From positions 2,236-66,235 of the forward strand of contig JAUSKP010000048.1 of the NCBI GenBank assembly GCA_030646555.1: a stretch of DNA of 64,000 nt. The letters run 5' to 3'. This DNA is from a bacterium (GTDB lineage Bacteria; Patescibacteriota; Minisyncoccia; UBA6257; 02-FULL-45-10c). Below are positions 11,529-55,485 of this stretch, in pieces. The notes beneath the pieces are model-generated. The model saw only the letters and a list, made by a program, of their open reading frames with translations, was not told where the DNA came from and ran no database searches. Each line of letters begins with the position of its first letter. The stretch's first letter is position 1. The position numbers and the translations under genes are program-made.

Positions 11529-12548
11529 ATGGGAATAATTGTTTTTTTAGGACTTTCTTTTGTTGTTATAGTGCACGAACTTGGGCATTTTTTAATGTCT
11601 AAGTTTTTTGGTGTTGCTGTTGAAGAATTTGGAATAGGTTTTCCGCCCAGAATTTGGAGCAAGAAAATAAAAGAAACAATTTATAGCTTCAATTGGATCT
11701 TGTGGGGAGGCTTTCTCAAAATAAACGGCTTAAGGTCCGAAGTGGAAAGAAAAGATCTTCCGCCTCACACCAGTTTTATGCGTCAGAGTTTTTGGAAAAA
11801 GGCGCTGATAATCGCCGGGGGCGTCATGATAAATTTCTTTTTAGGATGGTTCTTGCTTTTTATAGTTATGACCTTGGGAATCCCGCAGGGTATTTTTGTG
11901 GCGGATATAAAGCCCGAGAGCTTGGCTTACTATTCCGGGTTCCAAAAAGGAGATTTAATATTAAATTTTCAGAATGCCGATGAATTCAATAGTTATTTAA
12001 AGGAAAGCGCCGGAAAAGAAGCAGATTTTAAAGTAAAAAGGGATGGTTCTGAAAAGAATATATCAGTTCTTTTTCCGGAAGAAAGCTCTAAAACAGGAGA
12101 AATATTAGGAATTTATTATAGCGAGACAGGTACGCCAAAAACCGGGATAGTGGAAGGTGTCATTGAAAGTTTTAAAACTGCGTGTGGTTTAGTTATTTCC
12201 TATCTGGGTGGATATATTTCTTTAATTGGCAGATTATTTACGGATTCTTCGGCTATTCAAAGTTTAGTGGGTCCAGTCGGTCTTTTTGCCATGGGATCAT
12301 TAGTTTCTAAAGCGGGACTGGTTTATTTTCTTCAGCTTCTGGCTTTTCTCTCTATAAATCTTGTAATTTTTAATTTTTTGCCATTCCCAATGCTGGATGG
12401 CGGGTGGTTTATAGTGATTTTAATTGAAAAAATAAAAGGTTCTCCTGTAAGCCAAAAAACTGAAATGATAGTGAATGGATTTGGCTTTATTGTTCTTTTT
12501 TCTTTATTTGTATTTACGACAATTAAGGACGTGATCGGTCTTTTTTAG
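11529..12548 (+). CDS. rseP: RIP metalloprotease RseP (site-2 protease, M50)
   Basis: HELGHF zinc motif at the N-terminus, multiple TM segments, central PDZ-like region, C-terminal LDGG motif. Confidence 0.8.
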   Translation: MGIIVFLGLSFVVIVHELGHFLMSKFFGVAVEEFGIGFPPRIWSKKIKETIYSFNWILWGGFLKINGLRSEVERKDLPPHTSFMRQSFWKKALIIAGGVMINFFLGWFLLFIVMTLGIPQGIFVADIKPESLAYYSGFQKGDLILNFQNADEFNSYLKESAGKEADFKVKRDGSEKNISVLFPEESSKTGEILGIYYSETGTPKTGIVEGVIESFKTACGLVISYLGGYISLIGRLFTDSSAIQSLVGPVGLFAMGSLVSKAGLVYFLQLLAFLSINLVIFNFLPFPMLDGGWFIVILIEKIKGSPVSQKTEMIVNGFGFIVLFSLFVFTTIKDVIGLF

Positions 12549-12594
12549 ATTTGTTTTATCACCGTTTTTCGCTTAAAATATTAGTACTAGTAAA

Positions 12595-13851
12595 ATGAAA
12601 CAATCTCAATTATTTGCAAAGACATCGAGGAAACTTTCTGAAAGTGAGGCATCTAAAAATGCCCAATTTTTACTTAGAGGGGGATTCATAGATAAATCTT
12701 CCGCCGGAGTTTATACCCTGCTTCCTTTGGGCTTGAGAGTTTTAGAAAAAATAAATAAGATTATTCGAGAAGAAATAAATGCCATTGGCGCAGAAGAGCT
12801 TTTGATGCCTTCTTTGATCCAGAAAAAATATTGGGAAAAGTCTGGAAGATGGGGAGTGGATGTTATTTACAAAACTTCAACCGGCACAGAAAATAAAGAT
12901 AAAAAAGATTTTGAATATGGCCTTGGCTGGACTCACGAAGAAGTCATCTCGGCCATAGCCGTAAAGTTCATTAATTCTTATAAAGATCTTCCTAAGGCCG
13001 CCTATCAGATTCAAACTAAGTTCAGAGCCGAGGCAAGGCCTCAAGCCGGACTTTTGCGCGGACGCGAATTTTCAATGAAAGACTTGTACAGTTTCCACGA
13101 ATCAAAAGAAGATTTGGATAATTATTATGAAAAAGTTATCAATGCCTACAAAAATATATTTAAGAGACTTGGTCTTAAAACTTTAATTTGTGAAACTGGG
13201 GGCGGGGACTTTACGAAAGAATATACCCATGAATTTCAAGTTCTCAATCCCGCCGGAGAAGATACTATTTTTTATTGCGAAAAGTGCGGTTTCGGCCAAA
13301 ATCAGGAAGTTTATAAGCCCGAAGCTCATAAAAATTGCAAAAATCCAATACAATCTGGCAGAGCTATTGAAGTGGGTAATATTTTCAAGTTGGGAATCAA
13401 GTTTTCCGAAGCTTTTGGAATTTCATTTTTGAATAAAAACGGCGAGAAAAAACCGGTAATAATGGGCTCTTACGGAATTGGACCAACCAGAGTTTTAGGA
13501 ACCATCGTAGAGGAGTTCAGTGATGAATATGGGATTATTTGGCCTGAAACAGTAGCTCCATTTCAAGTTCACTTAGTTGAATTAAGCGGTAAAGATTCGG
13601 ATGGCAAAGTAACTAAGGCAGCTATGGCCTTATATGAAAAACTAGTTAAGAATGATATTGAGGTATTGTATGATGACAGAGACGCTTCAACGGGAGAAAA
13701 ACTTAATGACGCGGATCTGATGGGGATTCCGAATAGGGTGGTAATCAGTGAAAAAACGTTGGCTGCCAAAAAAATTGAATTAAAAATAAGAGGATCCAAA
13801 AAAACTGATCTGATCTCTGAAGCAGAACTAATTAAAATTTTACAAAAATGA
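12595..13851 (+). CDS. proS: proline--tRNA ligase, bacterial type without INS editing domain
   Basis: Class II motif 2 FRAEARPQAGLLRGREFSMKDLYSFH; N-terminal YTLLPLGLRVL; 418 aa. Confidence 0.75.
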   Translation: MKQSQLFAKTSRKLSESEASKNAQFLLRGGFIDKSSAGVYTLLPLGLRVLEKINKIIREEINAIGAEELLMPSLIQKKYWEKSGRWGVDVIYKTSTGTENKDKKDFEYGLGWTHEEVISAIAVKFINSYKDLPKAAYQIQTKFRAEARPQAGLLRGREFSMKDLYSFHESKEDLDNYYEKVINAYKNIFKRLGLKTLICETGGGDFTKEYTHEFQVLNPAGEDTIFYCEKCGFGQNQEVYKPEAHKNCKNPIQSGRAIEVGNIFKLGIKFSEAFGISFLNKNGEKKPVIMGSYGIGPTRVLGTIVEEFSDEYGIIWPETVAPFQVHLVELSGKDSDGKVTKAAMALYEKLVKNDIEVLYDDRDASTGEKLNDADLMGIPNRVVISEKTLAAKKIELKIRGSKKTDLISEAELIKILQK

Positions 13852-14894
13852 AAATTTTCGATTATTTTTCAAAAAATATAGGAATTGATCTCGGCACAGC
13901 TAATTCGCTTATTTATCTGGCCGGCAAAGGCATGGTTATAAACGAGCCTTCAATTGCCGCCATCAATAATAAAACCGGACAAATAGTGGCCATCGGAGAA
14001 GAGGCTAAAAAAATGATTGGCAGAACCCCGCTTCACATTACCGTTATCAGACCGCTTATCAATGGCGTTATTTCTGACTTTGAAATGACCCAAGAAATGC
14101 TCAATTTTTTGCTTAAAAAAGCAGTTGGACCGTCAAATTTTTTAAATTTTAACAAAGCCGTCATAGGCGTACCCAGTAATCTTACTGAAGTTGAGCGTAA
14201 ATCTGTTGAAGATGCGGTGATCGGCGCCGGAGCCAGCAAAGTTTATATCGTTGAAGAGCCACTTTTGGCCGCTTTAGGAGCTAAAATGCCGATAGATGAG
14301 CCAACTTCTAATATGATCATTGATATCGGAGGGGGCACTACTGAAATAGCGGTAATTTCTATGGGCGGCATAGTAAATGCTAAGAGTATTAAAATTGCAG
14401 GTGATAAATTAAATGAAGATATTGTCAGATTTATCCGGGACGAATTTCATTTGGCTATCGGCGAACCTACAGCCGAAGAACTGAAAATAAATATCGGATC
14501 AGCGTTGCCACTAGACCAAAAGATGGACTTGCCCATAAGGGGAAGGGATATGACAACGGGACTTCCAAGAGAAATTATTGTCAGAGATACGCATATCAGA
14601 ATGGCAATTTCTAAATCTTTAAAAATAATCATAGATTCAATAAAAGAAACCATAGAAACGACTCCACCAGAATTAGTCGGAGACGTTCTTAAGAGAGGTA
14701 TCTTTATTTGCGGCGGGGGGAGCTTGTTGAAAGGCATAGATAAATTAGTTGAAAAGGAAATAACTGTAACCACCAGAATCGTTGAGGATCCATTAACCTG
14801 CGTTGCAAGGGGGGCCGGAATGATAGCCGAAAATCTCATTAAATATTCTTACCTGGTAAATAATCCTTTGAGACCCAAAGAGATTAAAATATAA
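13848..14894 (+). CDS. mreB: rod shape-determining protein MreB (paralog 2), first gene of mreBCD-pbp2 cluster
   Basis: IGIDLGTANSLIYL...NEPSIAA; GGGTTEIAV; 348 aa; immediately upstream of mreC. Confidence 0.9.
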   Translation: MKIFDYFSKNIGIDLGTANSLIYLAGKGMVINEPSIAAINNKTGQIVAIGEEAKKMIGRTPLHITVIRPLINGVISDFEMTQEMLNFLLKKAVGPSNFLNFNKAVIGVPSNLTEVERKSVEDAVIGAGASKVYIVEEPLLAALGAKMPIDEPTSNMIIDIGGGTTEIAVISMGGIVNAKSIKIAGDKLNEDIVRFIRDEFHLAIGEPTAEELKINIGSALPLDQKMDLPIRGRDMTTGLPREIIVRDTHIRMAISKSLKIIIDSIKETIETTPPELVGDVLKRGIFICGGGSLLKGIDKLVEKEITVTTRIVEDPLTCVARGAGMIAENLIKYSYLVNNPLRPKEIKI

Positions 14895-14940
14895 GGGCTT
14901 TGTCTGAGTCTTGCGAAGCGAGACGAAGCTACAAAACCTT

Positions 14941-14997
14941 ACCCTGTTAAATAATCCGTCAGTTGACGGATTGCCGCTAGGCGGCATTTAACAGGGT
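14941..14997 (+). other. Y-shaped structured intergenic element (12-bp outer stem closing two inner hairpins)
   Basis: ACCCTGTTAAAT...ATTTAACAGGGT outer stem. Inner hairpins are AATCCGTC-agtt-GACGGATT and GCCGC-tag-GCGGC. Sits between mreB2 and mreC. Confidence 0.5.
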
Positions 14998-15112
14998 GCT
15001 CAAATTTATTAGCCCGCTAAAATAGTTAACTGATTTAGTTAAAAAACAAAAAATCTAGATATTATGTGCTATTATCAAAAATTTATAATTAATTTAGCAG
15101 GATAAATTTGGC

Positions 15113-15799
15113 ATGATCTTTATCCGTTTTGCGATAATTGCGGTCTTGCTGATTTTATTATTCAGTAATAATTTAATTTTTGTTAAAAATTTATTTTCAC
15201 CTTCATTAAACGCTAAAAATGAAATTGAAAGATTGGCGCTAGAAAATGATTCTTTAAAAACAGAGCTTTATATTGCTGAAAATCTAAGCGGAAAAGAGCT
15301 TAGCGACGGCAAATGGGAGTATTTTTATTCAAAGATATTTTCTTCTTATCCGTTCAATGATCAAAATTTGATAGGCATAGCTAGCGGTGAAATAAGCGGC
15401 ATTCAGCAGTATCAAGCCGTTGCTGCCGCCCCAGGTGTTTTATTGGGGCAGATCATAAAAGTTAATAAAAATACCGCTCTAGTCAGAACGATTTTTGATA
15501 AGGATTTCATTGCTGCCGTTAAAATTGGGGAGAATAAAACCGACGCTTTATTGAAAGGAGGCATTCCTCCGACTCTGGAGATGATTGAGAAAAGTAAAAC
15601 CATTAAAAATGGGGAAGTTGTTTATAATGCGGATAAAAATTATCCATATGGCTTTAAGTTAGGTGAGGTTCAAATAGTTGAAAATAAAAATACAGATACT
15701 GCCGGATTATTTCAAAAAGCATATCTAAGAGTCGATTACAGCATCGCCTTGTTAGAAGATGCCTTAATCATAAAAAACTTTGAAGTTCTAAAAAATTAA
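15113..15799 (+). CDS. mreC: rod shape-determining protein MreC
   Basis: N-terminal TM, coiled-coil region (LALENDSLKTELY), beta-rich C-terminal domain with the G.ISG....QY motif; position after mreB. Confidence 0.7.
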   Translation: MIFIRFAIIAVLLILLFSNNLIFVKNLFSPSLNAKNEIERLALENDSLKTELYIAENLSGKELSDGKWEYFYSKIFSSYPFNDQNLIGIASGEISGIQQYQAVAAAPGVLLGQIIKVNKNTALVRTIFDKDFIAAVKIGENKTDALLKGGIPPTLEMIEKSKTIKNGEVVYNADKNYPYGFKLGEVQIVENKNTDTAGLFQKAYLRVDYSIALLEDALIIKNFEVLKN

Positions 15800-15815
15800 T
15801 TTATATTGATCTAGT

Positions 15816-16271
15816 ATGAAAGAGAGGATGGCATTTTTTTTAGACATAACGTTGGTTTCTATGATCGGTTTAGCGCAGAGCGCCTCTCTTATAATTTTTA
15901 GCGGCGTAAAACCCAATCTTATTTTGGCGGTATTGGTTGTTTTGCTCTTTTCCGAAAAAGAATTTTGGAAATACTTAATTTTAGTCTTGGTCTCTTTAAT
16001 TTGTTTAGATTATTCTGTTTTTATCTCAAAAGAAGTGGTTCTTTTTGGAGTAATAATGCTCTCAGCTTTTTATTTTAAAAAATATTTAAGTGAAAATACA
16101 TATTTAAATTTTTTCTTACTCACTTCAATTTTAACAGCAATGCTTTACCTGCTCGTTGATTACAAGTTCATTTTTAACAATTTCGGCTTATTTTTATGGG
16201 AACTATTTTATAATGTATTAATAAGTTTGGCCTTCGGATTTTTGTATAAAGGATTAAATGGCAAAGAATAA
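15816..16271 (+). CDS. mreD: rod shape-determining protein MreD-like polytopic membrane protein
   Basis: 151 aa, about 5 hydrophobic helices, lies between mreC and PBP2; call based on synteny. Confidence 0.5.
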   Translation: MKERMAFFLDITLVSMIGLAQSASLIIFSGVKPNLILAVLVVLLFSEKEFWKYLILVLVSLICLDYSVFISKEVVLFGVIMLSAFYFKKYLSENTYLNFFLLTSILTAMLYLLVDYKFIFNNFGLFLWELFYNVLISLAFGFLYKGLNGKE

Positions 16272-18096
16272 TTTTTCATCAAAGGAAGAAGTTTTTTTTG
16301 AAGAAGCTGTTTTTGACAGCTTTTCTTCGCATAAAAATTTAAATCATTTAGAGCTCCCTGTATCTAAAAAAGCTTTTGCCTTGATCGCTGCGGCGGCAAT
16401 TTTAATAGCCGGGGTAGTTTTTTTGAGGGTGTTGTATTTGAGCTCATTTATGGGGGGATTTTATAGCCTCAGATCGGAAGCCAATGTCGGCAAGGAAATT
16501 TATAATCCGAGCAATAGGGGTATCATTTACGATCGTTATGGAGAACCGTTGGTGGAAAATATTCCGGCTTTTGCTGTTTCTTTAAAAATTAAAGATTTTT
16601 CAGAAAATTCTGAAGCAGAAAAACAAGCCCTTTCCGATATATTAGAGATACCTCTATTAGAAATTGGAAATAAAATTTCCGGTCAGAACATAGAAAGATC
16701 CCCATCTTTTATTTTGGCTAGAGATGTTGATTCAGAAAAAATAATAAGCTTAAAAGCTTTAAATCTAAAAGGCGTTGAAATAATAGACGATTATAAACGC
16801 CAATATATTGACGGACCGGCTTTTTCTCACGTTTTAGGTTATACAGGTATGAGCGATAAAAGCAATGAAATAATAGGAAAAACCGGAATAGAGCTGTCTT
16901 ATGATGATATTTTAAAAGGGACTGACGGCAAAACTATCGTTTATAGAGATGCAAAGGGCAATATTTTTGATAAAAAGATAGTTGAAGAGCCTAAGAATGG
17001 GGAAAGCATAACGCTCACAATAGACGCTGATCTGCAAAATTATTTTTATAATAGCCTCAACCAAGCATTGATAAATTTAGGAAGAAATTCGGCTGTGGGC
17101 CTAGCTATCAATCCCCAAAATGGAGAAGTTCTGTCCCTTATCAGTCTGCCGAGTTTTGACAATAATATTTTTTCCAGATCGAGAAATAACGCGGAAAAAA
17201 ATAGAATTTTAAATTCTGTCTATGCTCCGCTTTTCAATAAAGCTATTTCCGGCGCTTATACGCCGGCTTCAACCATAAAACCAATGGTGGGACTGGCGGC
17301 CTTAGCAGAGGGTCTTATTGATCCAAAAAAACAAATTCTTTCTATTGGCTATATTGAAATACCAAATCCATATGATTCTACAAAGCCAAGCAGATTTTTA
17401 GACTGGAAGGCAAATGGCTGGGTGGATCTTTATTCGGCTCTGGCAAGATCCAGCAACGTTTATTTTTACGAAGTTGGCGGAGGATTTGAAGACCAAAAAG
17501 GCTTGGGAATTGATAAGCTTAAAGAGTATTGGCAAAAATTCGGTTTGGGCAAGAAAACAGGAATTGATTTGCCCAGCGAAGCCGAAGGTTTTTTGCCGGA
17601 TCCGGTTCAAAAAGAAGCCGATAAAAATGATATTTGGAGAATAGGCGATACATATAACGTCAGTATCGGGCAGGGAGATCTGTTGGTTACGCCAATCCAA
17701 TTAATTTCCCAGATTGCGGCCATAGGAAACGGCGGTTATTTTTATAAGCCGCATGTATTAAAAGATGCGGCCAGTGAAACTTTAATAGATTTTAGCAATC
17801 TAGGAAATTATATAAAAGAAATTAAAAGGGGAATGGGCGATGCAGTAAGCAAACATTATGGCACGGCGAATATGCTTAGCAGTATACCAGTGGGCATAGG
17901 CGCTAAAACAGGAAGTTCGCAGGTTTCTAATAATTTGAAAACAAATGCATTTTTTGTAGGATTTATGCCGCTGGAAAATCCGCAAATAGCAATTTTAGTT
18001 TTAATTGAAAATGCGAAAGAAGGCAGTCTGAACGCGGTTCCTGTCGCTAAGGATGTCTTGGAATGGTATTATTGGAACAGAATAGTTAATCTATAA
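16258..18096 (+). CDS. mrdA: penicillin-binding protein 2 (peptidoglycan D,D-transpeptidase)
   Basis: Transpeptidase motifs ASTIKP (SxxK), SNVYF (SxN), KTGS (KTG); N-terminal TM; 612 aa. Confidence 0.85.
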   Translation: MAKNNFSSKEEVFFEEAVFDSFSSHKNLNHLELPVSKKAFALIAAAAILIAGVVFLRVLYLSSFMGGFYSLRSEANVGKEIYNPSNRGIIYDRYGEPLVENIPAFAVSLKIKDFSENSEAEKQALSDILEIPLLEIGNKISGQNIERSPSFILARDVDSEKIISLKALNLKGVEIIDDYKRQYIDGPAFSHVLGYTGMSDKSNEIIGKTGIELSYDDILKGTDGKTIVYRDAKGNIFDKKIVEEPKNGESITLTIDADLQNYFYNSLNQALINLGRNSAVGLAINPQNGEVLSLISLPSFDNNIFSRSRNNAEKNRILNSVYAPLFNKAISGAYTPASTIKPMVGLAALAEGLIDPKKQILSIGYIEIPNPYDSTKPSRFLDWKANGWVDLYSALARSSNVYFYEVGGGFEDQKGLGIDKLKEYWQKFGLGKKTGIDLPSEAEGFLPDPVQKEADKNDIWRIGDTYNVSIGQGDLLVTPIQLISQIAAIGNGGYFYKPHVLKDAASETLIDFSNLGNYIKEIKRGMGDAVSKHYGTANMLSSIPVGIGAKTGSSQVSNNLKTNAFFVGFMPLENPQIAILVLIENAKEGSLNAVPVAKDVLEWYYWNRIVNL

Positions 18097-18100
18097 TAAA

Positions 18101-19525
18101 ATGTTCGATCTCATACCTTTAATTAAAGCAATCGGATATCTCGGTATTTTTATAATTGTTTTTGCCGAATCAGGGCTTTTTATCGGATTTTTTTTGCCGG
18201 GAGACAGCCTGATTTTTACGGCCGGTTTTTTGGCATCCCAAGGATTTTTAAATATTTGGGATCTGATATTTTTAATATTTATCGCTGCCGTTATTGGCGA
18301 TAATTTTGGCTATGCTTTCGGAAAAAAAGTTGGCCCCATGATATTCAAAAGAGAGGATTCATTTTTATTCCATAAAGATAATTTAAACAAAGCTAAGATG
18401 TTTTATGAGAAATATGGCGGAAAGGCGATAATTCTGGCGAGGTTTATGCCAGGCATTAGGACGTTTGCTCCAATTTTAGCTGGAGTCGGAAAAATGCAGT
18501 ACAGCAAATTTTTATCATTCAATATTATTGGCGGAGCTCTTTGGGGCATTGGATTACCTTTGCTTGGATACTATTTAGGGAACGTTATTCCAAATATAGA
18601 CAGGTATATTGTCTTTATAGTTCTTTTAATCATATTTATTTCAGTTTCCCCTATGATTTGGCACGTTGTAAAAGACAAAGCTACCAGGGATCGCATTTTA
18701 AATACTTTGTTAAACGCCCTGCATACTAAAGCAACAAAATATGCGGGCAAATTGGTTGTTTTTAACTGGAAAATGAATCCGGAAACTTTAGAAAGCGCGA
18801 TAGATATGGCAAGAAAAAGTGATCATAAAAATATCGTGGTTGCGCCGCCGTTCGTATTTATTGAAGAAATTGGAAAAATTATTAAAACAGCCAAACTTGG
18901 AGCCCAGGACTTATTTTATAAAAATACAAATGGAGGATCTTTTACGGGGGAAATATCTGCGTCAGAACTTGTTAATTTAGGAGTAAAATATGCAATTATC
19001 GGTCATTCGGAAAGACGGGCTATGGGTGAAAGCGATGAAATAATATCTAAAAAAATAAAAACGGCATTGGATAACGGGCTTATTCCAATACTTTGCGTGG
19101 GCGAATCCAAAAAAGAATCAGGAAGTATGAATAATGAATTAAGCGTTTCATCGAAAGAGTTTGTCAGGGATCAATTAGAAAAAGACCTATTTCTTATTCG
19201 TAATTCATCATTCTCAATTCACAATTCTCTCATCGTCGCCTACGAACCAATTTGGGCAATCGGCACCGGGAATAATTGTTCTCCGGAAGTTGCTCTGGAA
19301 ATGATCAAATTTATTAAAAGTCTTTCCGGGTCATTAGCTCCGGCGCTCGCTAAAAGCGAGGTCGGAGTCCCGACCGCTGAGCGCGTCGGGATTGTTGGTT
19401 GTAGGTTGTTAGTTTTATATGGCGGCTCCGTTAACTCAAAAAATATAAGTGATTTTCTTAAATATAAGGAGATAGATGGAGTTTTGGTTGGGGGAGCAAG
19501 TTTAGATCCAAAACTATTTTTTTGA
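18101..19525 (+). CDS. tpiA: fusion protein: DedA/SNARE-associated membrane domain + triosephosphate isomerase
   Basis: The first ~190 aa carry DedA motifs (FLPGDSLIFTAGFLA..., ILARFMPGIRTFAPILAGVGKM). A TIM barrel follows with NWKMN, IGHSERR, AYEPIWAIGTG, YGGSV. Single uninterrupted frame of 474 aa. Confidence 0.8.
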   Translation: MFDLIPLIKAIGYLGIFIIVFAESGLFIGFFLPGDSLIFTAGFLASQGFLNIWDLIFLIFIAAVIGDNFGYAFGKKVGPMIFKREDSFLFHKDNLNKAKMFYEKYGGKAIILARFMPGIRTFAPILAGVGKMQYSKFLSFNIIGGALWGIGLPLLGYYLGNVIPNIDRYIVFIVLLIIFISVSPMIWHVVKDKATRDRILNTLLNALHTKATKYAGKLVVFNWKMNPETLESAIDMARKSDHKNIVVAPPFVFIEEIGKIIKTAKLGAQDLFYKNTNGGSFTGEISASELVNLGVKYAIIGHSERRAMGESDEIISKKIKTALDNGLIPILCVGESKKESGSMNNELSVSSKEFVRDQLEKDLFLIRNSSFSIHNSLIVAYEPIWAIGTGNNCSPEVALEMIKFIKSLSGSLAPALAKSEVGVPTAERVGIVGCRLLVLYGGSVNSKNISDFLKYKEIDGVLVGGASLDPKLFF

Positions 19526-19569
19526 AAAAATCGAAATCCATATTTTTTAATTTTATTTTTCCTTCCCAT

Positions 19570-19667
19570 CTGTCATTGCGAGGAGTCTGCGACGTGGCAA
19601 TCCAGTTCTTTTTCTAGATTCCAGCCGTAGTTTACCCTCGAGCTACATCGGGGGCTGGAATGACAGA
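19570..19667. repeat. composite palindromic element (B-unit TGTCATTGCGAGGAGTCTGCGACGTGGCAATC + inverted A-like hairpin ...GGCTGGAATGACAGA)
   Basis: Terminal inverted motifs TGTCATTGCG / GGAATGACA. Internal 9-bp stem ATTCCAGCC/GGCTGGAAT. Lies immediately 3' of the dedA-tpiA fusion gene. Confidence 0.8.
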
Positions 19668-19721
19668 AAAATTATATGTTATTATATAATTGTATTGAGT
19701 ATTTAAATATAAATAAAAAAA

Positions 19722-19858
19722 TGGATCCCGCACATAACAAAGATAATTAATTTGTATGTGCAGATTCAAAAATAAAGTAATAAAGTCGTTTAAAATAATA
19801 ATTAATAAAAACAGAGAGTAAGAAAGCTTTGTTTTCAAATCTTTGTTATGTGCGGGAT
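19722..19858. repeat. perfect 20-bp inverted repeat (ATCCCGCACATAACAAAGAT / ATCTTTGTTATGTGCGGGAT) flanking ~97 nt of AT-rich DNA
   Basis: Arms at 19722-19741 and 19839-19858. The right arm overlaps the first possible start codon of the SIMPL gene. Confidence 0.7.
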
Positions 19859-20624
19859 GGATAATAATTTAGAATCATTAAAAAAATATTTTTGGCCTAT
19901 TTTAAACATATTATTAATAGTTTTGGTGATTTTGGGCATATTTTCAGTTAGCGCGTTGCGCCGGTATGTTGATACCACTTCTTCAAATCGCACGATCTCT
20001 GTTTCAGCTGAAGGCAAAACTGTGGTTACTCCGGACATAGCTAAGATTAATTTTTCTGTTGTGACCGAAGGCGCCGATACCGTTAAAATATCCGAAGAAA
20101 ATATTAAGAAAATGAATAAGGCCATTGATTTTGTAAAGTCGCAGGGGATCGGATCAAAAGATATCCAAACGGCAGGATACAGCCTTTCTCCAAAATATGA
20201 ATACAACGAAGATAAGAGGGAAAGTTTCATTAGCGGCTACACATTAACCCAGACCATCTATATTCAGATCCGTGATTTTTCAAAGATTAGCGGCATTTTA
20301 GGCGCGTTGCCCGGACTCGGCGTTAACAACATAAGCTCCCTGTCTTTTGCCATAGAAAACCAAGATGAAGCTTTGAAAGTTGCGCGTGATCAGGCTTTTG
20401 AGAAAGCTTTTGTAAAAGCCAGAGAAATGGCAAAACAAAATGGAGTAAGAATTAAAAGAGTGGTCACTTTTTCCGATTATCAAAACAATTACCCAATCTA
20501 CGCTAAAACAATGAGTTATGGAATCGGTGGAGGAGCGACCGATGAAGCAGTTCGGGCACCATCAATTGAGCCGGGTAGCCAAGAAGTGACCGTAAATGTG
20601 AGCATAACCTACGAAATAGATTAA
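19857..20624 (+). CDS. SIMPL (DUF541) domain periplasmic protein
   Basis: N-terminal TM/signal, then ISVSAEGK..V.PD.A...FSV..E.....A...N...M..A...VK..G....DIQT..YS..P.Y. Start at ATG 19857 because ATG 19848 lies inside the inverted-repeat arm. Confidence 0.65.
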   Translation: MDNNLESLKKYFWPILNILLIVLVILGIFSVSALRRYVDTTSSNRTISVSAEGKTVVTPDIAKINFSVVTEGADTVKISEENIKKMNKAIDFVKSQGIGSKDIQTAGYSLSPKYEYNEDKRESFISGYTLTQTIYIQIRDFSKISGILGALPGLGVNNISSLSFAIENQDEALKVARDQAFEKAFVKAREMAKQNGVRIKRVVTFSDYQNNYPIYAKTMSYGIGGGATDEAVRAPSIEPGSQEVTVNVSITYEID

Positions 20625-20627
20625 AAA

Positions 20628-21083
20628 ATGATAGCAAGATTTAGTAATTTGAAAGAAAGGTATCCTTTTATTCCTCAATTCATCAGATTCTTCCTTGTTG
20701 GAGCTATAAATACCGGAATAGATTTCGCGGTGCTGAATTTTCTTATTTTTTTTACCGAAAAAAGCAGCGGTGTTTACTATCCAGTTTTTAAATTTATTTC
20801 TTTTATGATTGCGGTCACCAATAGCTATTTTATGAATAAATATTGGACTTTCAAGTCCGATGATGCGTGCGGCGCAAAGCCTGGTGAATTTTTGAAGTTT
20901 TTGGGCGTTTATTTGGTTGGCGCAATAGTTAATGTCGGCGTTGCCACATATGTAGTAAATTACATTAGCGCCCCAATCGGATTTTCACCGGTCTTATGGG
21001 CGAATGTAGGGGCCTGTTTTGCAGTAGTGTTTACTCTTACTTGGAATTTCGTAGGTCTTAAATTTATAGTTTTTAAGAAATAA
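20628..21083 (+). CDS. GtrA-family membrane protein (polysaccharide synthesis/translocation associated)
   Basis: FIRFFLVGAINTGIDFAVLNFLIF N-terminal signature; 4 TM helices; 151 aa. Confidence 0.65.
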   Translation: MIARFSNLKERYPFIPQFIRFFLVGAINTGIDFAVLNFLIFFTEKSSGVYYPVFKFISFMIAVTNSYFMNKYWTFKSDDACGAKPGEFLKFLGVYLVGAIVNVGVATYVVNYISAPIGFSPVLWANVGACFAVVFTLTWNFVGLKFIVFKK

Positions 21084-21153
21084 ATTTAAACTTTAGTCCT
21101 TAGAAAATTGGAACGTGTTTTAAGATATATCTTATATGACGTTCTAAATTTGA

Positions 21154-21186
21154 CAAGAATGAGAAAATAGTGTATATTATACACTC
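21154..21186 (+). promoter_or_regulatory. sigma70-type promoter (TTGACA-17-TATATT) with overlapping palindromic operator AGTGTATA-T-TATACACT
   Basis: -35 TTGACA at 21154-21159, 17-nt spacer, -10 TATATT. An 8-bp perfect inverted repeat is centred on the -10. A near-identical module occurs at 29763-29800. Confidence 0.65.
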
Positions 21187-21231
21187 AAGTGAATTGTTCG
21201 TTCCAAATTCAGAAAAAGGAGATAAAAAAGA

Positions 21232-21369
21232 TGTCAGAACCGAAAAAAGAGCTGAGTAGCGAGGATCAGAAAAGCGAGGAGGCTTTTGCCGATCTGGTCT
21301 TTGCTAGCGAAAATGCGGTTATGGACAAAACCGGCTGGTTCGAAGTTCCGGTAAAGGCAGGGGAATAAG
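21232..21369 (+). CDS. small acidic protein (45 aa), hypothetical
   Basis: MSEPKKELSSEDQKSEEAFADLVFASENAVMDKTGWFEVPVKAGE. Strong RBS AAAGGAG 8 nt upstream, consensus promoter before it and a terminator after it. Below the ORF-track length cutoff. Confidence 0.45.
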
Positions 21370-21377
21370 TTTCAATA

Positions 21378-21412
21378 AAAGGGCGGATCTAATATGATTT
21401 CGCCCTTTTTTA
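21378..21412 (+). terminator. rho-independent terminator
   Basis: Stem AAGGGCG/CGCCCTT followed by TTTTTTATTT. Confidence 0.6.
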
Positions 21413-21466
21413 TTTGATGTTTTTAAGTTATAATCTTATTTAAGATTAGTAAAAAGAAAAAATTTA

Positions 21467-21577
21467 TGTCATTCCGGGCTCGACCCGGAATCCAGTCCGT
21501 CATTGCGAGCCCTAAAGGGGCGTGGCAATCTAATGAATTACTAGAGATTGCTTCGTCGCAGACTTCTCGCAATGACG
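21467..21577. repeat. composite palindromic element (A-unit, B-unit, spacer, inverted B-unit)
   Basis: TGTCATTCCGGGCTCGACCCGGAATCC + GTCATTGCGAGCCCTAAAGGGGCGTGGCAATC ... GATTGCTTCGTCGCAGACTTCTCGCAATGACG. Confidence 0.8.
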
Positions 21578-21606
21578 AAGATAATAATTAAAATTAGTAA
21601 AAATAT

Positions 21607-21921
21607 ATGAACTTAGATATTAAGGCAACAAATTTAGAATTAACTCCCGCTATTAAGCAGTATATTGAAACCAAAATTTCCGGGCTTTCCAAATTTTTAG
21701 AGAAATGGGAAAAATCCGGCAAAATAAACGTTAAATTTGAATTGGCCAGAACCACTAACCACCATAGCAAGGGTGAAGTTTTTTACGCTGAAATGAATCT
21801 TAATTTGGGAGAAAAAATGCTCCGCGCCGAACATTCAGCCGAGGATGCGTATAAAGCGATAGATAAAGTGAAAGACATAATGAAAGAAGAAATTATTGAG
21901 TTTAAAGAAAAGTCTGAGTAA
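21607..21921 (+). CDS. hpf: ribosome hibernation promoting factor / RaiA family (short form)
   Basis: MNLDIKATNLELTPAIKQYIETKISGLSKFL...YKAID.V; 104 aa. Confidence 0.85.
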   Translation: MNLDIKATNLELTPAIKQYIETKISGLSKFLEKWEKSGKINVKFELARTTNHHSKGEVFYAEMNLNLGEKMLRAEHSAEDAYKAIDKVKDIMKEEIIEFKEKSE

Positions 21922-21944
21922 AAATATAATACTCGTCATTGCGA

Positions 21945-22007
21945 TTGCCGCTGAAGCAATCTATTTTAATCACGAGATTGCCACGTCGCAGACTCCTCGC
22001 AATGACA
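21945..22007. repeat. composite palindromic element (B-variant + inverted B-unit) between hpf and secA
   Basis: GTCATTGCGATTGCCGCTGAAGCAATC ... GATTGCCACGTCGCAGACTCCTCGCAATGACAGA. Ends 10 nt before the secA ATG. Confidence 0.8.
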
Positions 22008-22016
22008 GAAAAATAA

Positions 22017-24365
22017 ATGTTTAACTTTTTTTCTTTTTTTGATCCGGTCAAGAAGCTTAAACCGGTTATTGAAAAAATAAATGATCTGGAAAAAGAAATA
22101 TCTTCTTTGAGCAATGAACAGCTTTTGGAAGAAAGCAAAAAACTTTTTGAAATAGAAATAGGCGAGAATGAATTGGTAAAAGGTTTTGCTTTAGTCAGAG
22201 AAACTGCCAAGAGAAATCTTGGCCAGCGTCATTTTGATGTCCAGCTGATGGGCGGCTTGGCGCTCCACGAAGGAAGAATTGCTGAAATGGCAACCGGTGA
22301 AGGAAAAACATTGGCTTCCACCGCGCCGATATATTTGAATGCGCTTTCCAAAAAAGGCGTTCACGTGGTAACCGTCAATGAATATTTAGCCAAAAGAGAT
22401 GCTGTTTGGATGGGCCAAATTTATCATGCTTTGGGGCTTTCTGTGGCTTGTTTGATCCACGAAGGCGCTTTGATGTATGACCCAAAATACATCTCTAAAA
22501 ACGCTGAAACGCTCATAGACAGGGAAAGGGACACAACCGGCAGTTTTATGGTGCAAGGCGAGTATTTAAGGCCAATTTCGCGCAAAGAAGCCTATTTAGC
22601 GGACATTACCTATGGCACAAACCATGAATTCGGCTTTGACTACCTAAGGGACAATTTAGCTTATTCTAGCGGAAACCAGGCGCAAAGAGGGCATAATTAT
22701 GTAGTAATTGATGAAATAGACAGCATTTTAATTGATGAAGCTAGGACCCCGCTTATTATTTCTGCTCCGGACGAAGAATCCAGCGATTTTTATAAGCAAT
22801 TTTCGCGCATAGTTTCCATGCTCAAAAAGGACGAGGATTATATAATTGACGAGAAAATGAAGTCGGCCGACATCACCGACGAAGGAATAAATAAAGTTGA
22901 AAAAGCTTTAAAGATAAAAAATCTTTATGATCCGGAAAATCTGAGACTGACCCGATATTTGCAGGAAACCCTGAAAGCTTACGGTTTGTTCAGGCGAGAC
23001 AAAGATTATGTGGTAAAAAATAATGAAGTAATTATCGTTGACCAGTTTACCGGCAGGCTTATGCCGGGCAGAAGATATTCCGGCGGATTGCATCAGGCCT
23101 TGGAGGCGAAAGAAAATGCGCAAGTTCAAAATGAATCCAGGACCTATGCGCAAATTACAATTCAAAATTATTTCAGGCTTTATAAAAAGATTGGGGGTAT
23201 GACCGGCACTGCCAGGACTTCAGCCGAGGAATTTGAAAAAGTATACGGACTGAAAGTTTTAAATATTCCGACCAATAAACCTTTGGCGAGAATTGATCAG
23301 CCAGACTTGATTTATAAAAACGAAGGCGCGAAATACAACGCCATTATTGAAGATGTTAAAGAAAGGCAAAAAATGGGTCAGCCGATACTCATCGGTTCAA
23401 TTTCTATAGAAAAAAATGAAATTTTGTCTAATTTGCTTAATAAATTCGGCGTGAGACACGAAATATTAAATGCTAAAAATCATGAACGTGAGGGCGCCAT
23501 TATTGCCCAGGCAGGAAGAGTCGGGGCCGTGACAGTCGCCACTAATATGGCGGGCCGTGGTGTAGATATTGTTCTTGGCGGCAATCCGGTGGATCCGGTA
23601 GAAAACCAAAAGGTAAAAGAATTGGGCGGACTCCACGTGATCGGCACGGAAAGGCACGAGGCTAGAAGAATTGACTATCAGCTTCAGGGACGAAGCGGAA
23701 GGCAGGGAGATCAAGGCTCATCCCAGTTTTTCCTTTCCTTGGAAGATGATCTTTTGCGTGTTTTTGGCGGAGAAAGAATTAAAAATTTAATGGAAAATTT
23801 TAATATCCCTGAAAATATGCCAATTGAATCGGGGATTGTGTCCAAAGCAGTTTCTCAAGCTCAAACCAAAATTGAAGGATTTAATTTTGACTCAAGAAAA
23901 AATTTGCTTGATTATGACGACATTTTAAATAAACAAAGACTCTCTGTTTATAAGAAACGCCAGGAAATGCTTGAAAAAAGTACTCATCCACAAATACTTT
24001 CTGTTTTAGATCTGTTTTGGATGAATCATTTGGAAAGTATGGAGGCCCTGCGGGAATCTGTGAGAATAAGGGCTTATGGCCAGCATGATCCGCTTGTTGA
24101 ATATCGCCGTGAAAGCCACGTTTTATATAGGCAGATGCTGGAGGGTTTTGAGAAATGGCTTGTTGAAAATAAAGAAAAAATTGAGGAAATGATTAAACAA
24201 CAAGCAGCCTCCTCTGTCATTCCCGCGAAAGCGGGAATCCAGGAAAAGAACTGGATTCCGGGTCAAGCCCGGAATGACAACAAGATGAATGGCCAAAAAG
24301 TTGGCAGAAATGATAATTGTCCATGCGGAAGCGGAAAAAAATACAAAAAGTGCCACGGAAAATAA
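22017..24365 (+). CDS. secA: preprotein translocase ATPase SecA with C-terminal zinc-binding tail and an in-frame repeat-encoded insertion
   Basis: DEAD-like motor motifs (MATGEGKT, VIDEIDSILIDEARTPLIIS), C-terminal CPCGSGKKYKKCHGK. Residues VIPAKAGIQEKNWIPGQARND are encoded by an A-family repeat pair. Confidence 0.9.
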   Translation: MFNFFSFFDPVKKLKPVIEKINDLEKEISSLSNEQLLEESKKLFEIEIGENELVKGFALVRETAKRNLGQRHFDVQLMGGLALHEGRIAEMATGEGKTLASTAPIYLNALSKKGVHVVTVNEYLAKRDAVWMGQIYHALGLSVACLIHEGALMYDPKYISKNAETLIDRERDTTGSFMVQGEYLRPISRKEAYLADITYGTNHEFGFDYLRDNLAYSSGNQAQRGHNYVVIDEIDSILIDEARTPLIISAPDEESSDFYKQFSRIVSMLKKDEDYIIDEKMKSADITDEGINKVEKALKIKNLYDPENLRLTRYLQETLKAYGLFRRDKDYVVKNNEVIIVDQFTGRLMPGRRYSGGLHQALEAKENAQVQNESRTYAQITIQNYFRLYKKIGGMTGTARTSAEEFEKVYGLKVLNIPTNKPLARIDQPDLIYKNEGAKYNAIIEDVKERQKMGQPILIGSISIEKNEILSNLLNKFGVRHEILNAKNHEREGAIIAQAGRVGAVTVATNMAGRGVDIVLGGNPVDPVENQKVKELGGLHVIGTERHEARRIDYQLQGRSGRQGDQGSSQFFLSLEDDLLRVFGGERIKNLMENFNIPENMPIESGIVSKAVSQAQTKIEGFNFDSRKNLLDYDDILNKQRLSVYKKRQEMLEKSTHPQILSVLDLFWMNHLESMEALRESVRIRAYGQHDPLVEYRRESHVLYRQMLEGFEKWLVENKEKIEEMIKQQAASSVIPAKAGIQEKNWIPGQARNDNKMNGQKVGRNDNCPCGSGKKYKKCHGK
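24215..24279. repeat. A-family repeat pair inserted in-frame in the secA 3' end
   Basis: TGTCATTCCCGCGAAAGCGGGAATCCAG...GGATTCCGGGTCAAGCCCGGAATGACA translates in the secA frame as SVIPAKAGIQEKNWIPGQARND. Confidence 0.8.
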
Positions 24366-32201: not shown

Positions 32202-32352
32202 TGTCATTCCGCACTTGTCGCCGAAGTCATCGCTATGCGAGATCTGGCGAAGCCAGACAATCTATCTATCTGTCATTGCGAGGGCTTTGGCCCGCGGCAA
32301 TCTATCTTATTATGGATTGGATTGCCACGTCGCGGACTCCTCGCAATGACAG
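32202..32352. repeat. composite palindromic element (A-long, B, inverted B) immediately 3' of lepA
   Basis: TGTCATTCCGCACTTGTCGCCGAAGTCATCGCTATGCGAGATCTGGCGAAGCCAGACAATC, TGTCATTGCGAGGGCTTTGGCCCGCGGCAATC, GATTGCCACGTCGCGGACTCCTCGCAATGACAGA. Confidence 0.8.
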
Positions 32353-32379
32353 AGAATATGATAAAATTAGAGGATAATA

Positions 32380-53229: not shown

Positions 53230-54282
53230 ATGCTGTCCCAAACAATAAGATTGTTAATTTTAGCCGGAACCGCTTTTACGGTGGCATTGATATTGACCCC
53301 TGTTTTTATAAAAATACTGGATCGGTTTCATCTCCATAAACAGATTCGCAGCCAAGAATCAGCTCCGGTTTTTTACAGTCTTCATAAACACAAAGAAAAT
53401 ACCCCAACAATGGGCGGGGTGATAATCTGGGTAACTGTTTTAGGGCTAGCTTTTTTAATTTGGATTTTAAGCGATATTTTTGGAGGAGTTTTTGATTATT
53501 TAAATTTTGTTGATAGAGCCCAGACATATCTACCGATAGCGGCCATGCTCATTGCGGCATTGCTAGGCTTGTCAGACGATATATTGGGCGCTCTAAGAAT
53601 AGGGCCGAACGGGGGAGGGCTCAGAATTTCTCAGAAGCTTATTATGTATACTGTTTTGGCCGCCATCGGAGGTTTTTGGTTTTTTTATAGATTAAATTGG
53701 GATGTTTTATATATTCCATTTTGGGGCAATTTAACGATCGGCTGGTGGTACATTCCAATTTTTATATTTGTAATTGTAGCAAGCGCTTTTTCCGCCAATG
53801 AAACCGATGGATTAGACGGACTGGCCGGCGGAGTTATGCTTTTCGCTTTCGTTTCTTTAACGGCTGTGGCTTTTATCTTGGGAAGGTATGATCTGGCAGC
53901 TTTCGGCGCCACGGTCATAGGCGCGCTTTTGGCATTTTTATGGTTTAACATTTATCCGGCAAGATTTTTTATGGGCGACACCGGATCCATGGCTCTGGGA
54001 ATTACAATGGGCGTGATCGCAATGCTCACCAACACGACACTTTTCCTGCCATTATTCGGATTCATTCTGGTAGGAGAATCAATTTCCGTAATAGTCCAAT
54101 TACTAAGCAAGAAAATATTTAAGAGAAAAATATTTTTATCCACGCCGATACACCATCACTTTGAAGCGCTGGGCTGGCACGAAACCAAAGTTACTATGCG
54201 TTTTTGGATCATCTCGGTCATCTCCTGTATTTTAGGCCTGGTGCTTTTTATGATGAGCAAGTTTATGTTTTTAATAAAATAA
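53230..54282 (+). CDS. mraY: phospho-N-acetylmuramoyl-pentapeptide transferase
   Basis: NETDGLDGLAGG and MGDTGSMALG motifs; 10 TM helices; HHHFE. Confidence 0.9.
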   Translation: MLSQTIRLLILAGTAFTVALILTPVFIKILDRFHLHKQIRSQESAPVFYSLHKHKENTPTMGGVIIWVTVLGLAFLIWILSDIFGGVFDYLNFVDRAQTYLPIAAMLIAALLGLSDDILGALRIGPNGGGLRISQKLIMYTVLAAIGGFWFFYRLNWDVLYIPFWGNLTIGWWYIPIFIFVIVASAFSANETDGLDGLAGGVMLFAFVSLTAVAFILGRYDLAAFGATVIGALLAFLWFNIYPARFFMGDTGSMALGITMGVIAMLTNTTLFLPLFGFILVGESISVIVQLLSKKIFKRKIFLSTPIHHHFEALGWHETKVTMRFWIISVISCILGLVLFMMSKFMFLIK

Positions 54283-54325
54283 AAGTAATCAACGAATAGC
54301 GAATTAGTACGAATATACGAATTCC
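54283..54325. repeat. D-family repeat AAGTAATCAACGAATAGCGAATTAGTACGAATATACGAATTCC immediately after the mraY stop
   Basis: About 39/43 identical to 2707-2750, the sequence immediately after the infA stop. Confidence 0.75.
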
Positions 54326-54381
54326 ATCATTGCGAGGCAACTGACTTGTCCGCCATAGCTTCGGCGAAGGTGGAAGCAATC
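54324..54381. repeat. B-family unit with internal C-family hairpin
   Basis: CCATCATTGCGAGGCAACTGACTTGTCCGCCATAGCTTCGGCGAAGGTGGAAGCAATC. Confidence 0.75.
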
Positions 54382-54401
54382 TATAATCCAGTAAATAATT
54401 T

Positions 54402-55484
54402 ATGAAATATCTAAGCAATCTAAACAAAAAGGAACTCAACGGAAAAACCAGTCTTTTAAGAGTGGACTTGAATATTAAATCCCTAAAAGATCATTTTAGA
54501 ATTGATTCGGTTTTGCCAACCATTAAATATCTTCTAAAGAACAGTTCAAAAGTTGTCATATTAAGCCACCGCGGCAGGCCAAATAGTATAGATCCAAAGT
54601 TAAGCCTGCGGCCAATAGCTAAAATAATTTCTCAAAAATTAAAATCAAAGATCAAATTTATTGATTCATTTGCTGACTTTAATTTTTCCACCAGAGGCGG
54701 ATCAGCCTTTGGCTGGAAAAAAATAAAGAAAGAGATCGATTCTGAAAAAAAAGTAAAAGTTTTTGTTTTGGAAAATTTACGATTTCTGTCCGGTGAAGAA
54801 AAAAACAGCAACAACCTGGCTAAAAAACTAGCAAGTCTTGGAGATCTATACATAAATGACGCCTTTGCCGTATCTCACAGAAAAAATGCGTCAGTTTTTG
54901 CGATCACTAAGCACATCAAAAGCTACGCCGGATTACTTATGGAAAAAGAGATAGCGGGACTTACCAAGGCCACAAAAAATCCTAAACAACCATTAATTGT
55001 TGTTCTTGGAGGTACTAAAATAGACACTAAAATAAATATTGTTAAGAATCTAAATTCGCGAACAAAATTCTTTCTTTTAGGGAGTTCTATTTTTAACGAA
55101 ATAAAAAATCCTATAGTTAAAAATATTATTAAAAATAAAAAATGCCTGATACCAATTGATTTTTTTAAAAGAAATGGGAAATTTTTTGATATCGGACCGG
55201 AAACAATTGTCTTATATAAAAAAATAATTTCGGAGGCAAATACTATAATTTGGAACGGACCAGTGGGAATGTTTGAAGATAAAAAATATTCTAAAGGAAC
55301 GGCCAAGATTGCGAGCGCCATAATAAGATCAAAAGCTTTTAAGGTGATCGGCGGGGGAGAAACGGCTAATTTCATCCTAAATAACAAAATGAATAAGAAT
55401 ATAGATCTCCTATCAACCGGGGGCGGAGCTATGCTGGATTTTTTGGCCGGCAAAAAATTGCCAGGCATAGAAGCCTTAAAATAA
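54402..55484 (+). CDS. pgk: phosphoglycerate kinase (divergent)
   Basis: LLRVDLN, VVILSHRGRP, ENLRF...EE, GGGETANF; 360 aa. Confidence 0.75.
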   Translation: MKYLSNLNKKELNGKTSLLRVDLNIKSLKDHFRIDSVLPTIKYLLKNSSKVVILSHRGRPNSIDPKLSLRPIAKIISQKLKSKIKFIDSFADFNFSTRGGSAFGWKKIKKEIDSEKKVKVFVLENLRFLSGEEKNSNNLAKKLASLGDLYINDAFAVSHRKNASVFAITKHIKSYAGLLMEKEIAGLTKATKNPKQPLIVVLGGTKIDTKINIVKNLNSRTKFFLLGSSIFNEIKNPIVKNIIKNKKCLIPIDFFKRNGKFFDIGPETIVLYKKIISEANTIIWNGPVGMFEDKKYSKGTAKIASAIIRSKAFKVIGGGETANFILNNKMNKNIDLLSTGGGAMLDFLAGKKLPGIEALK

Positions 55485-55485
55485 T

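Follow-up and report, generated by a model that had tools for sequence, protein, structure and literature searches.

It is only recently that DedA proteins have been tied to the recycling of the lipid carrier for peptidoglycan; how they work, and in which oligomeric state, is a matter of continuing debate. Triosephosphate isomerase (TIM), encoded by tpiA, is an obligate homodimer. The hallmark of the COG0586 branch of the DedA family is a set of charged residues of the E39, D51, R130 and R136 type, and its members are putative flippases of undecaprenyl phosphate (UndP) driven by the proton motive force (PMF) (Todor et al., PMC10127716). In the same survey of ~6,000 genomes, rhodanese and PAP2 were named as the fusion partners of this branch (PMC10127716). 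TIM is known to be joined to the products of neighbouring genes in PGK-TIM of Thermotoga (PRK13962), where it is C-terminal, in the TPI-GAPDH of stramenopiles (PMC3527533) and in TIM/PTS-IIB (PRK14905); the partners in these proteins are soluble, metabolically adjacent enzymes or PTS domains. The 64,000-nucleotide stretch of Patescibacteria DNA analysed here (GenBank assembly GCA_030646555.1, contig JAUSKP010000048.1, positions 2,236 to 66,235; hereafter the window) carries a single frame of 474 aa in which a COG0586-type DedA domain is fused to TIM. Unlike in the known TIM fusions, the partner is a predicted lipid transporter of the membrane that is not an obvious metabolic neighbour of TIM.

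In common with the COG0586 proteins of E. coli (YghB, YqjA, DedA) and B. subtilis (UptA), the window protein has the PF09335 domain and the four charged residues with identical spacing, its gene lies among peptidoglycan genes, and the C-terminus is by analogy cytoplasmic. It differs from them in having a 260-aa predicted cytoplasmic enzyme at the C-terminus and in scoring under the DedA and UptA equivalog cut-offs. With canonical TpiA (PDB 1BTM, 1B9B) the TIM part shares 30–37% identity and all the catalytic and phosphate-binding residues, whereas the polytopic membrane protein at the N-terminus, the ~18-aa disordered insert before strand beta7 and the non-adjacent pgk set it apart. PRK13962 was matched by the TIM half only (profile positions 397–635, 187 vs 883 bits), so the protein is not a member of the PGK/TIM family. 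The closest parallels are the DedA-MurB, PAP2-DedA and DedA-HAD proteins of Patescibacteria, in which a cytoplasmic enzyme is appended to the same or a closely related DedA branch; MurB and PAP2 are evidently tied to the peptidoglycan/lipid-carrier cycle, TIM is not. The best explanation of the window protein, with a probability of about 0.7, is a bifunctional polypeptide with independently acting halves, predicted from sequence and model to be an undecaprenyl-phosphate-type flippase and a TIM tethered to the membrane on the cytoplasmic side.

Results

The fusion frame and its homologues

The frame was read without a stop or a frameshift (Table 1) and consists of the DedA domain (aa 1 to ~192), a basic linker (aa 193–216) and the TIM barrel (aa 217–474). 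The first-pass annotation of the window had described one 474-aa frame carrying DedA and TIM, and this was borne out by the open frame and by Pfam matches above the cut-off for both domains. A database search for the architecture, which had been suggested together with that annotation, covered 5.8 billion proteins and returned ~23 other clusters (P0001–P0010, P0012–P0024) with both Pfam domains, a length of 436–485 aa and 56–86% identity to the window protein. They originate from JGI, ENA, Logan and NCBI assemblies of Patescibacteria/Minisyncoccota. In addition, a 474-aa protein identical to that of the window (P0121) was found in an independent Logan assembly. Purifying selection was visible in both halves and in the linker in the alignment of the fused homologues, and the synteny was unbroken on both flanks of the gene. 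No second TIM or DedA was detected in the 64-kb window. The DedA-TIM fusion is real and conserved in a group of Patescibacteria of the Candidate Phyla Radiation (CPR), i.e. ultra-small bacteria.

For the source contig, GenBank (MDO8443106.1) calls no more than the C-terminal 290 aa, from M185 onwards, and names this product 'triose-phosphate isomerase'. The labels on the fused architecture in public databases are 'triose-phosphate isomerase' or 'membrane-associated protein'. Nothing relevant on a DedA-TIM protein was returned by a full-text literature search, and the DedA survey lists only the two fusion partners given above for this subfamily (PMC10127716), in agreement with the earlier statement that no described DedA-TpiA fusion was known to its author. 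The architecture is apparently undescribed rather than unseen, being already present in the databases but mis-annotated or under-annotated.

The DedA domain

The match to Pfam VTT_dom/DedA (PF09335) covered aa 32–157 and scored 62 bits, the gathering cut-off being 33.9. The score with the NCBIfam model of E. coli DedA (PRK10847; aa 14–196) was 157.5 bits against an equivalog cut-off of 236, and the UptA models NF052604 and NF052605 gave 55–56 bits against cut-offs of 250–300. By these profile scores, the DedA part belongs to the family without being an equivalog of either E. coli DedA or UptA. In the alignment with E. coli YghB, residues E23, D35, R114 and R120 of the window protein corresponded to E39, D51, R130 and R136, respectively, and all four are nearly invariant in the fused homologues. 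The DedA part of the AlphaFold2 model was helical, with the last membrane helix at aa 170–191. By analogy, the DedA part is likely a transporter of the class assigned to the PMF-driven recycling of undecaprenyl phosphate, the lipid carrier of peptidoglycan. Such a COG0586-type transporter would form the N-terminal part of the protein, with a pair of re-entrant loops and the complete set of four charged residues that mark the branch.

The triosephosphate isomerase domain

The TIM part matched Pfam TIM (PF00121) over aa 218–473 with 207.2 bits (cut-off 20.1), and the score with the TIGR00419 TIM equivalog, 134.4 bits, was just over the cut-off of 130.6. The catalytic motifs named in the first pass, NWK (N222/K224), IGHSERR (H302) and EPIWAIGTG (E382), were all found and are invariant among the fused homologues. 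The phosphate-binding loops were present as PIWAIGTG (loop 6), YGGS (loop 7) and GGASL (loop 8). Together, the catalytic residues and the phosphate loops were invariant in 16 sequences, except for parts of loop 6, and aligned with those of solved TIMs. The AlphaFold2 model, for which a 59-sequence alignment was used as the input, had a mean pLDDT of 85.9; its barrel was intact, with eight strand/helix units starting at aa 218 and a pLDDT mostly above 85. In the Foldseek search against the PDB, the top 50 matches were all TIMs (TM-score 0.78–0.85), and the comparison of solved TIMs with the TIM domain resulted in TM-scores of 0.82–0.85 at 30–37% identity. The TIM part is predicted to be a complete and catalytically intact triosephosphate isomerase.

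A loop insertion of ~35 aa had been reported after CVGESKKE. This did not hold, as in comparison with solved TIMs only ~6 extra residues were found there and 3 more slightly further along, and these are common to the closest fused homologues P0001 and P0002. The real window-specific insertion has ~18 aa, follows the helix behind loop 6 and precedes strand beta7, and is not present in the closest homologues.

The linker and the topology

The linker derives from the C-terminal tail of DedA plus the first residues of TIM; in the split relative described below (L004) the same region contains a stop and an overlapping ATG. Seven K/R and two D/E residues were counted in aa 186–222. Both the length and the sequence of the linker vary among the fused homologues. 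In the homologue P0002, a 105-nt in-frame insert (L025 806–910) adds 35 aa to the linker; it ends in 14-bp terminal inverted repeats (ATCCCGCACCTTCC...GGAAGGTGCGGGAT) and looks like an element of the MITE (miniature inverted-repeat transposable element) type. Since the linker varies and accommodates an insert of 35 aa in L025, a precise inter-domain geometry is argued against.

In E. coli YqjA, G217C near the C-terminal end was found to be cytoplasmic by substituted-cysteine accessibility mapping (SCAM), and the C-terminal helix was identified as an oligomer interface (bioRxiv 10.1101/2021.10.18.464800). The K/R-rich tail of the window DedA, together with the cytoplasmic position of G217C in YqjA, leads to the expectation that the TIM domain is at the cytoplasmic face, in line with the earlier proposal of a glycolytic enzyme tethered to the membrane. 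We infer the cytoplasmic C-terminus and the orientation of TIM from the SCAM of YqjA, the positive-inside charge and the pbp2/mreBCD context. On the cytoplasmic side, the last membrane helix would be followed by a short basic helix that leads into TIM. A homodimeric TIM on the helix that is likely the oligomer interface of DedA appears sterically plausible, and the dimers may be expected to be compatible.

Genomic context and origin of the fusion

The gene order in the window is M50 protease, class II aminoacyl-tRNA synthetase, mreB, mreC, mreD-like, pbp2 (mrdA), DedA::TIM, SIMPL, GtrA, HPF and SecA, and the stop of pbp2 is 4 nt ahead of the ATG of the fusion. The same order was determined for the fused loci L001, L002 and L017. 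In L002 and L017 a galT-like gene lies between pbp2 and the fusion, which is absent from this place in the window. The loci of stand-alone TIMs in other Patescibacteria (L006, L008, L010, L013) have the order TIM-SIMPL-GtrA-HPF-SecA. As the stand-alone TIMs share this downstream order, the fused TIM is the housekeeping tpiA, still in its ancestral place.

Separate dedA and tpiA genes occur in Candidatus Harrisonbacteria RIFCSPLOWO2_02_FULL_45_10c (L004), in the order pbp2-galT-dedA-tpiA-SIMPL. The last nucleotide of dedA there is 8627 and the first of tpiA 8624, giving a 4-nt ATGA overlap, and the DedA is 72–74% identical to that of the window. In L008, a more distant DedA is located at the same place, with one gene between DedA and tpiA. 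Neighbour-joining trees with 200 bootstraps were calculated separately for the TIM and DedA domains. The fused TIM domains without the basal P0021 cluster formed a group in 197 of the 200 bootstraps, and the TIM of L004 paired with a stand-alone TIM outside this group in 141. In the DedA tree, the monophyly of the fused sequences was recovered in 62 of 200 bootstraps, and that of the fused sequences together with L004 in 81.

The simplest history is that the window-type fusions go back to one fusion of adjacent, translationally coupled genes and that L004 represents the unfused state; the overlap in L004 is likely the pre-fusion state. Adjacency to tpiA was also considered for the closest stand-alone DedA homologues and was rejected: P0037, P0043 and the DedA-MurB protein P0046 are located in unrelated contexts. 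Proximity of dedA to tpiA is thus confined to the galT-dedA-tpiA lineages. The mreBCD-pbp2/SIMPL-GtrA setting and the split, overlapping relative point to a fusion of neighbouring genes and not to a designed membrane-glycolysis device. Most likely, the architecture arose by read-through between neighbouring genes in a cell-wall gene cluster. Within an envelope cluster that is conserved in this part of the Patescibacteria, mreBCD-pbp2-(galT)-dedA-tpiA-SIMPL-gtrA, dedA and tpiA adjoin each other, and the loss of the stop together with the frame offset at the overlap would weld them together. In a compact genome, the fusion would then be a consequence of the conserved neighbourhood of the two genes and of the overlap between stop and start codon.

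A second, independent fusion

The exhaustive HMMER search of 1.84 billion cluster representatives resulted in one further DedA+TIM protein, P0182 (462 aa, ~30% identical), and P0267 from a different project is 85% identical to it. In the loci of these type B proteins (L048, L049), as distinct from type A of the window, the order is ribosomal operon-SecY-Adk-MAP-GT2-galT-[DedA::TIM]-pgk-PRT, which in L049 continues into RecJ-RNaseH. The type B DedA comes from a different branch of COG0586: NCBIfam classes it as UptA-like, it carries an 'IPIPSE' motif, and of the two arginines it retains only one. Its identity to the unfused DedA of L008 is 36%. The type B TIM is nearest to stand-alone TIMs (~50% identity), and at the junction the ancestral TIM methionine has been retained. 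By these sequence comparisons, DedA and TIM have been fused on at least two occasions, in both cases immediately 3' of a galT-like gene. The galT-dedA-tpiA triad was observed to recur in both fusion types and in unfused relatives.

Besides TIM, the partners of related Patescibacteria DedAs were MurB (proteins of 594–677 aa), PAP2, HAD phosphatases, DUF192 and the membrane domain of LPG synthase. The DedA-MurB architecture was frequent; no mention of it was found in the DedA survey (PMC10127716).

A palindromic element within the isomerase gene

The window-specific insertion in TIM is encoded by a GC-rich palindromic element with a GC content of 52% vs ~33%. The ~63-nt insert folds as two adjacent GC-rich hairpins, CTCCGGCG...GTCGGAG and TCCCGACCGC-TGA-GCGCGTCGGGA. 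Residues 415–432 within the insert have a pLDDT below 50; they form the sole disordered segment of the model and are located in a surface loop. No further copy was found in the 64-kb window by blastn-short, the pattern search or the covariance model (single copy, 62.7 bits), by which a repeat within the window was ruled out with three search methods. Only chance-level matches were obtained with Rfam on 18000–22100, and the element corresponds to no described RNA family.

A homologous element was found at the same site of an unrelated stand-alone TIM (P0056, L024 768–871); there, two 52-nt copies lie in tandem, each read in a frame of its own. The sister sequences of the window TIM and of the P0056 TIM are without it. 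The pattern scan of metagenome contigs resulted in 21 further loci (L027–L047) on CPR-like contigs. The element has ~54–63 nt and the core CyCCGACG..GTCGGrGTCCCGACC..GCGTCGGGATTG. Some of the copies are intergenic, others are in-frame in NusA (L037, L040) and at the N-terminus of uS11 (L028–L030, L043). The peptide read from the element in NusA, uS11, the window TIM and the first L024 copy is '..APT..VGVPT..(G)V(G/E)I..'. The stems covary, with 95% of the cells paired, 5 pairs changed on both sides and 0 of 500 shuffles reaching the observed score, the search pattern itself having fixed much of the 3' core.

Rickettsia palindromic elements are in-frame selfish DNA, and the element resembles them in its behaviour, i.e. 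in the in-frame presence inside housekeeping genes. The CGTC-tagged REP (repetitive extragenic palindrome) sequences (PMC3733652) served as the comparison for a GC-rich hairpin with a conserved CGTC tag. The element is like them in being a short GC-rich hairpin with CCGACG/CGTCGG, spread over many genomes and with covarying stems; it is different in having a single copy in the 64-kb window, in consisting of two adjacent hairpins of ~54 nt and in being absent from Rfam. The literature search brought up no description of in-frame palindromic elements from CPR genomes.

Degenerate 7-nt repeats (AATTCAC/AATTCTC...) were observed at 19195–19235 of the window and, in L025 and L026, at the equivalent of ~19325–19400, just before beta6 and beta7, respectively. 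At these sites the fused TIM genes encode 'NSSFSIHNS'-like peptides. The two sites are alike within each homologue and different between homologues. The second site, before beta7, is the insertion point of the GC-rich element in the window.

Other features of the window

The coordinates of all the features are collected in Table 1. As the first-pass annotation had stated, pgk is a gene of its own, apart from the fusion. Its product has 360 aa and the Pfam PGK match is in two stretches. On its 3' side, in the region 53230–57307, a DHH/DHHA1 (RecJ-like) gene (55486–56682) is followed by RNase H (56669–57307). The order in L049 is similar, pgk-PRT-RecJ-RNaseH, but there the type B fused tpiA still adjoins pgk.

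A nested palindrome was observed in the mreB-mreC spacer (14938–14997), in which an outer 12-bp stem (ACCCTGTTAAAT/ATTTAACAGGGT) surrounds two inner hairpins, AATCCGTCA..TGACGGATT and GCCGC..GCGGC. Its match to the model R1 of the GC-rich element was weak (12 bits, E 0.18), and it may represent another family of structured intergenic elements. A short repeat (..GTCATTGCGAGGAG..GCGACGTGGCAATCC..) occurs at several intergenic sites of the window, with one copy in the 322-nt spacer directly 3' of the fusion gene.

Table 1. Features of the fusion gene, its surroundings and related loci. Positions are those of the window unless a locus is given.
Feature	Position	Strand	Description
DedA::TIM fusion ORF	18101..19525	+	uninterrupted frame, ATG to TGA, 474 aa plus stop
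DedA (COG0586-type) membrane domain	18101..18676	+	aa 1-192; PF09335, PRK10847, YghB alignment, model
Basic linker	18677..18748	+	aa 193-216; helix aa 193-209 in model
TIM domain	18749..19522	+	aa 217-474; Pfam, TIGR00419, invariant columns, TIM-barrel model
TIM catalytic residues	N222 18764-18766; K224 18770-18772; H302 19004-19006; E382 19244-19246	+	
GC-rich two-hairpin palindromic element, in-frame in TIM	19336..19398	+	aa ~412-433, '..LAPALAKSEVGVPTAERVGIV..'
mreB	13848-14894	+	elongasome gene upstream
mreC	15113-15799	+	elongasome gene upstream
mreD-like	15816-16271	+	elongasome gene upstream
PBP2/MrdA-type transpeptidase	16258..18096	+	Pfam; TIGR03423 pbp2_mrdA 442 bits
SIMPL/DUF541	19848-20624	+	downstream gene
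GtrA-like	20628-21083	+	downstream gene
pgk	54402..55484	+	separate, far from tpiA, adjoins mraY 53230-54282
Short intergenic repeat	19569-19604, 21976-22009, 32318-32353, 21554-21576, 28380-28397, 28547-28566	both orientations	
galT-like (HIT-family uridylyltransferase)	L002/L017 6979-7995; L004 6967-8010; L008 5238-6224; L048 3252-4286; L049 6960-7997		directly before dedA
DedA fusions with other partners			P0026, P0029, P0038, P0041, P0042, P0046, P0048, P0051; P0078, P0079, P0090, P0093; P0066, P0096

Discussion

According to the preferred reading, the two halves of the window protein act independently. The TIM half would carry out ordinary triose-phosphate isomerisation at the inner surface of the membrane, and the DedA half would serve the recycling of the lipid carrier, undecaprenyl phosphate, for the elongasome genes that precede it. 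The fusion would guarantee 1:1 co-expression and would place a dimeric TIM at the inner face of the membrane beside the likely oligomer-interface helix of DedA. It is from the data above that we infer the independence of the two activities and the substrate of the flippase.

Several points weigh against this reading. The TIM activity, the flippase activity and the size of the product are predictions from sequence and model. The lipid substrate is an extrapolation because the equivalog cut-offs of E. coli DedA and UptA were not reached. The DedA tree leaves it undecided whether the split in L004 is ancestral or a secondary fission, and the direction, fusion vs fission, therefore rests mainly on the TIM tree. 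The second fusion and the recurring galT-dedA-tpiA order could reflect a real functional link that is underrated when the activities are taken as independent. Finally, Shine-Dalgarno (SD)-like motifs were found at 5 of the 54 window genes vs an in-gene background of 11%; as real starts in this genome have no SD signal, the lack of a ribosome-binding site at the junction is evidence neither for nor against an internal start. The SD test for an internal start was dropped as uninformative, since the motif rate equals the in-gene background.

The main rival, which seems rather unlikely, is that the fusion was selected for functional coupling, with the triose-phosphate interconversion at the membrane feeding the DedA-dependent lipid pathway or being regulated by it. 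The suggested routes are, for example, dihydroxyacetone phosphate (DHAP) to glycerol-3-phosphate for lipids or teichoic-type polymers and glyceraldehyde 3-phosphate (GAP) for the synthesis of isoprenoids and the lipid carrier; alternatively, a glycolytic metabolon could form at the membrane of very small cells, or the TIM dimer could be a clamp that stabilises a DedA dimer. The coupling is favoured by at least two origins of the fusion, from different DedA branches (type A of the window and type B of P0182/P0267), by the galT-dedA-tpiA order that exists in fused, split and spaced forms (L002, L004, L008, L048, L049), and by the association of TIM with SIMPL and GtrA, both envelope genes, in many Patescibacteria. 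The oligomer interface at the C-terminal helix of DedA and the obligate dimer of TIM also fit it. However, undecaprenyl-phosphate flipping and TIM are joined by no known pathway, the linker is variable and accommodates a 35-aa in-frame mobile insert in L025, and conserved adjacency in streamlined genomes alone can yield recurrent fusions. Moreover, the same DedA branch is joined to other enzymes, including MurB, HAD and PAP2, which indicates that DedA ends readily accept partners. The DedA of the MurB, PAP2 and HAD fusions is of the same branch as that of the window or a closely related one (55–66% identity over the DedA part), with sister groups in the DedA tree; the fusions to MurB and PAP2 fit a role in the peptidoglycan/lipid-carrier pathway.

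Very improbable is a single ORF with two products, in which TIM is made also or mainly from an internal start, M185 or a start-like codon before NWK, as a free cytosolic enzyme. The 290-aa TIM annotated in MDO8443106.1 begins at M185, an in-frame TTG is located 4 codons ahead of N222 in the window, and the ancestral TIM methionine is retained in the type B fusions. Against these stands the linker of the six type A fused loci, in which no in-frame ATG, GTG or TTG was found at a fixed position; L002 and L026 have no start-like codon at all in the 13–16 codons before NWK. In many homologues M185 is replaced by I, T or F, and according to the model it falls inside the last membrane helix, so that its product would begin within this helix. 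In the promoter and terminator scan of 12500–22100, the counts were equal to the shuffled expectation, so that the scan yielded nothing that could be used as a signal. The linker sequence aaa tAT Gcg of the window was considered as a 'relic ATG' of the old tpiA start; this is not claimed, as the residue after Y varies among the homologues.

That an assembly chimera or a sequencing frameshift joined two separate genes, as the stop between the domains of L004 and the full ORF left uncalled in GenBank might suggest, is effectively refuted by the ~23 clusters from independent projects with identity as low as 56%, the identical protein in the independent Logan assembly, the purifying selection across the halves and the linker, and the continuous synteny on both sides.

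As to what the independent halves and their fusion mean more broadly, a clade-conserved and twice-invented fusion to an obligate homodimer indirectly supports a dimeric DedA whose C-terminus is in the cytoplasm. The fusion could be used as a structural handle, with TIM as a rigid and well-behaved fiducial domain, and it provides a testable Rosetta-stone hint. It is unlikely that this recurrent, selected architecture marks an unrecognised functional link in Patescibacteria between triose-phosphate metabolism at the membrane surface and DedA transport of lipids or lipid carriers, for example through a local supply of DHAP/glycerol-phosphate or GAP for envelope synthesis, or with TIM as an obligatory dimerisation module of the transporter. 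For the biology of CPR bacteria, the only tpiA detected in the window is predicted to be membrane-anchored, which is hidden by the 290-aa annotation. If there is no functional coupling, the locus would be a clean example of how neighbouring genes fuse in streamlined genomes, and one in which the unfused state with overlapping genes can still be found today.

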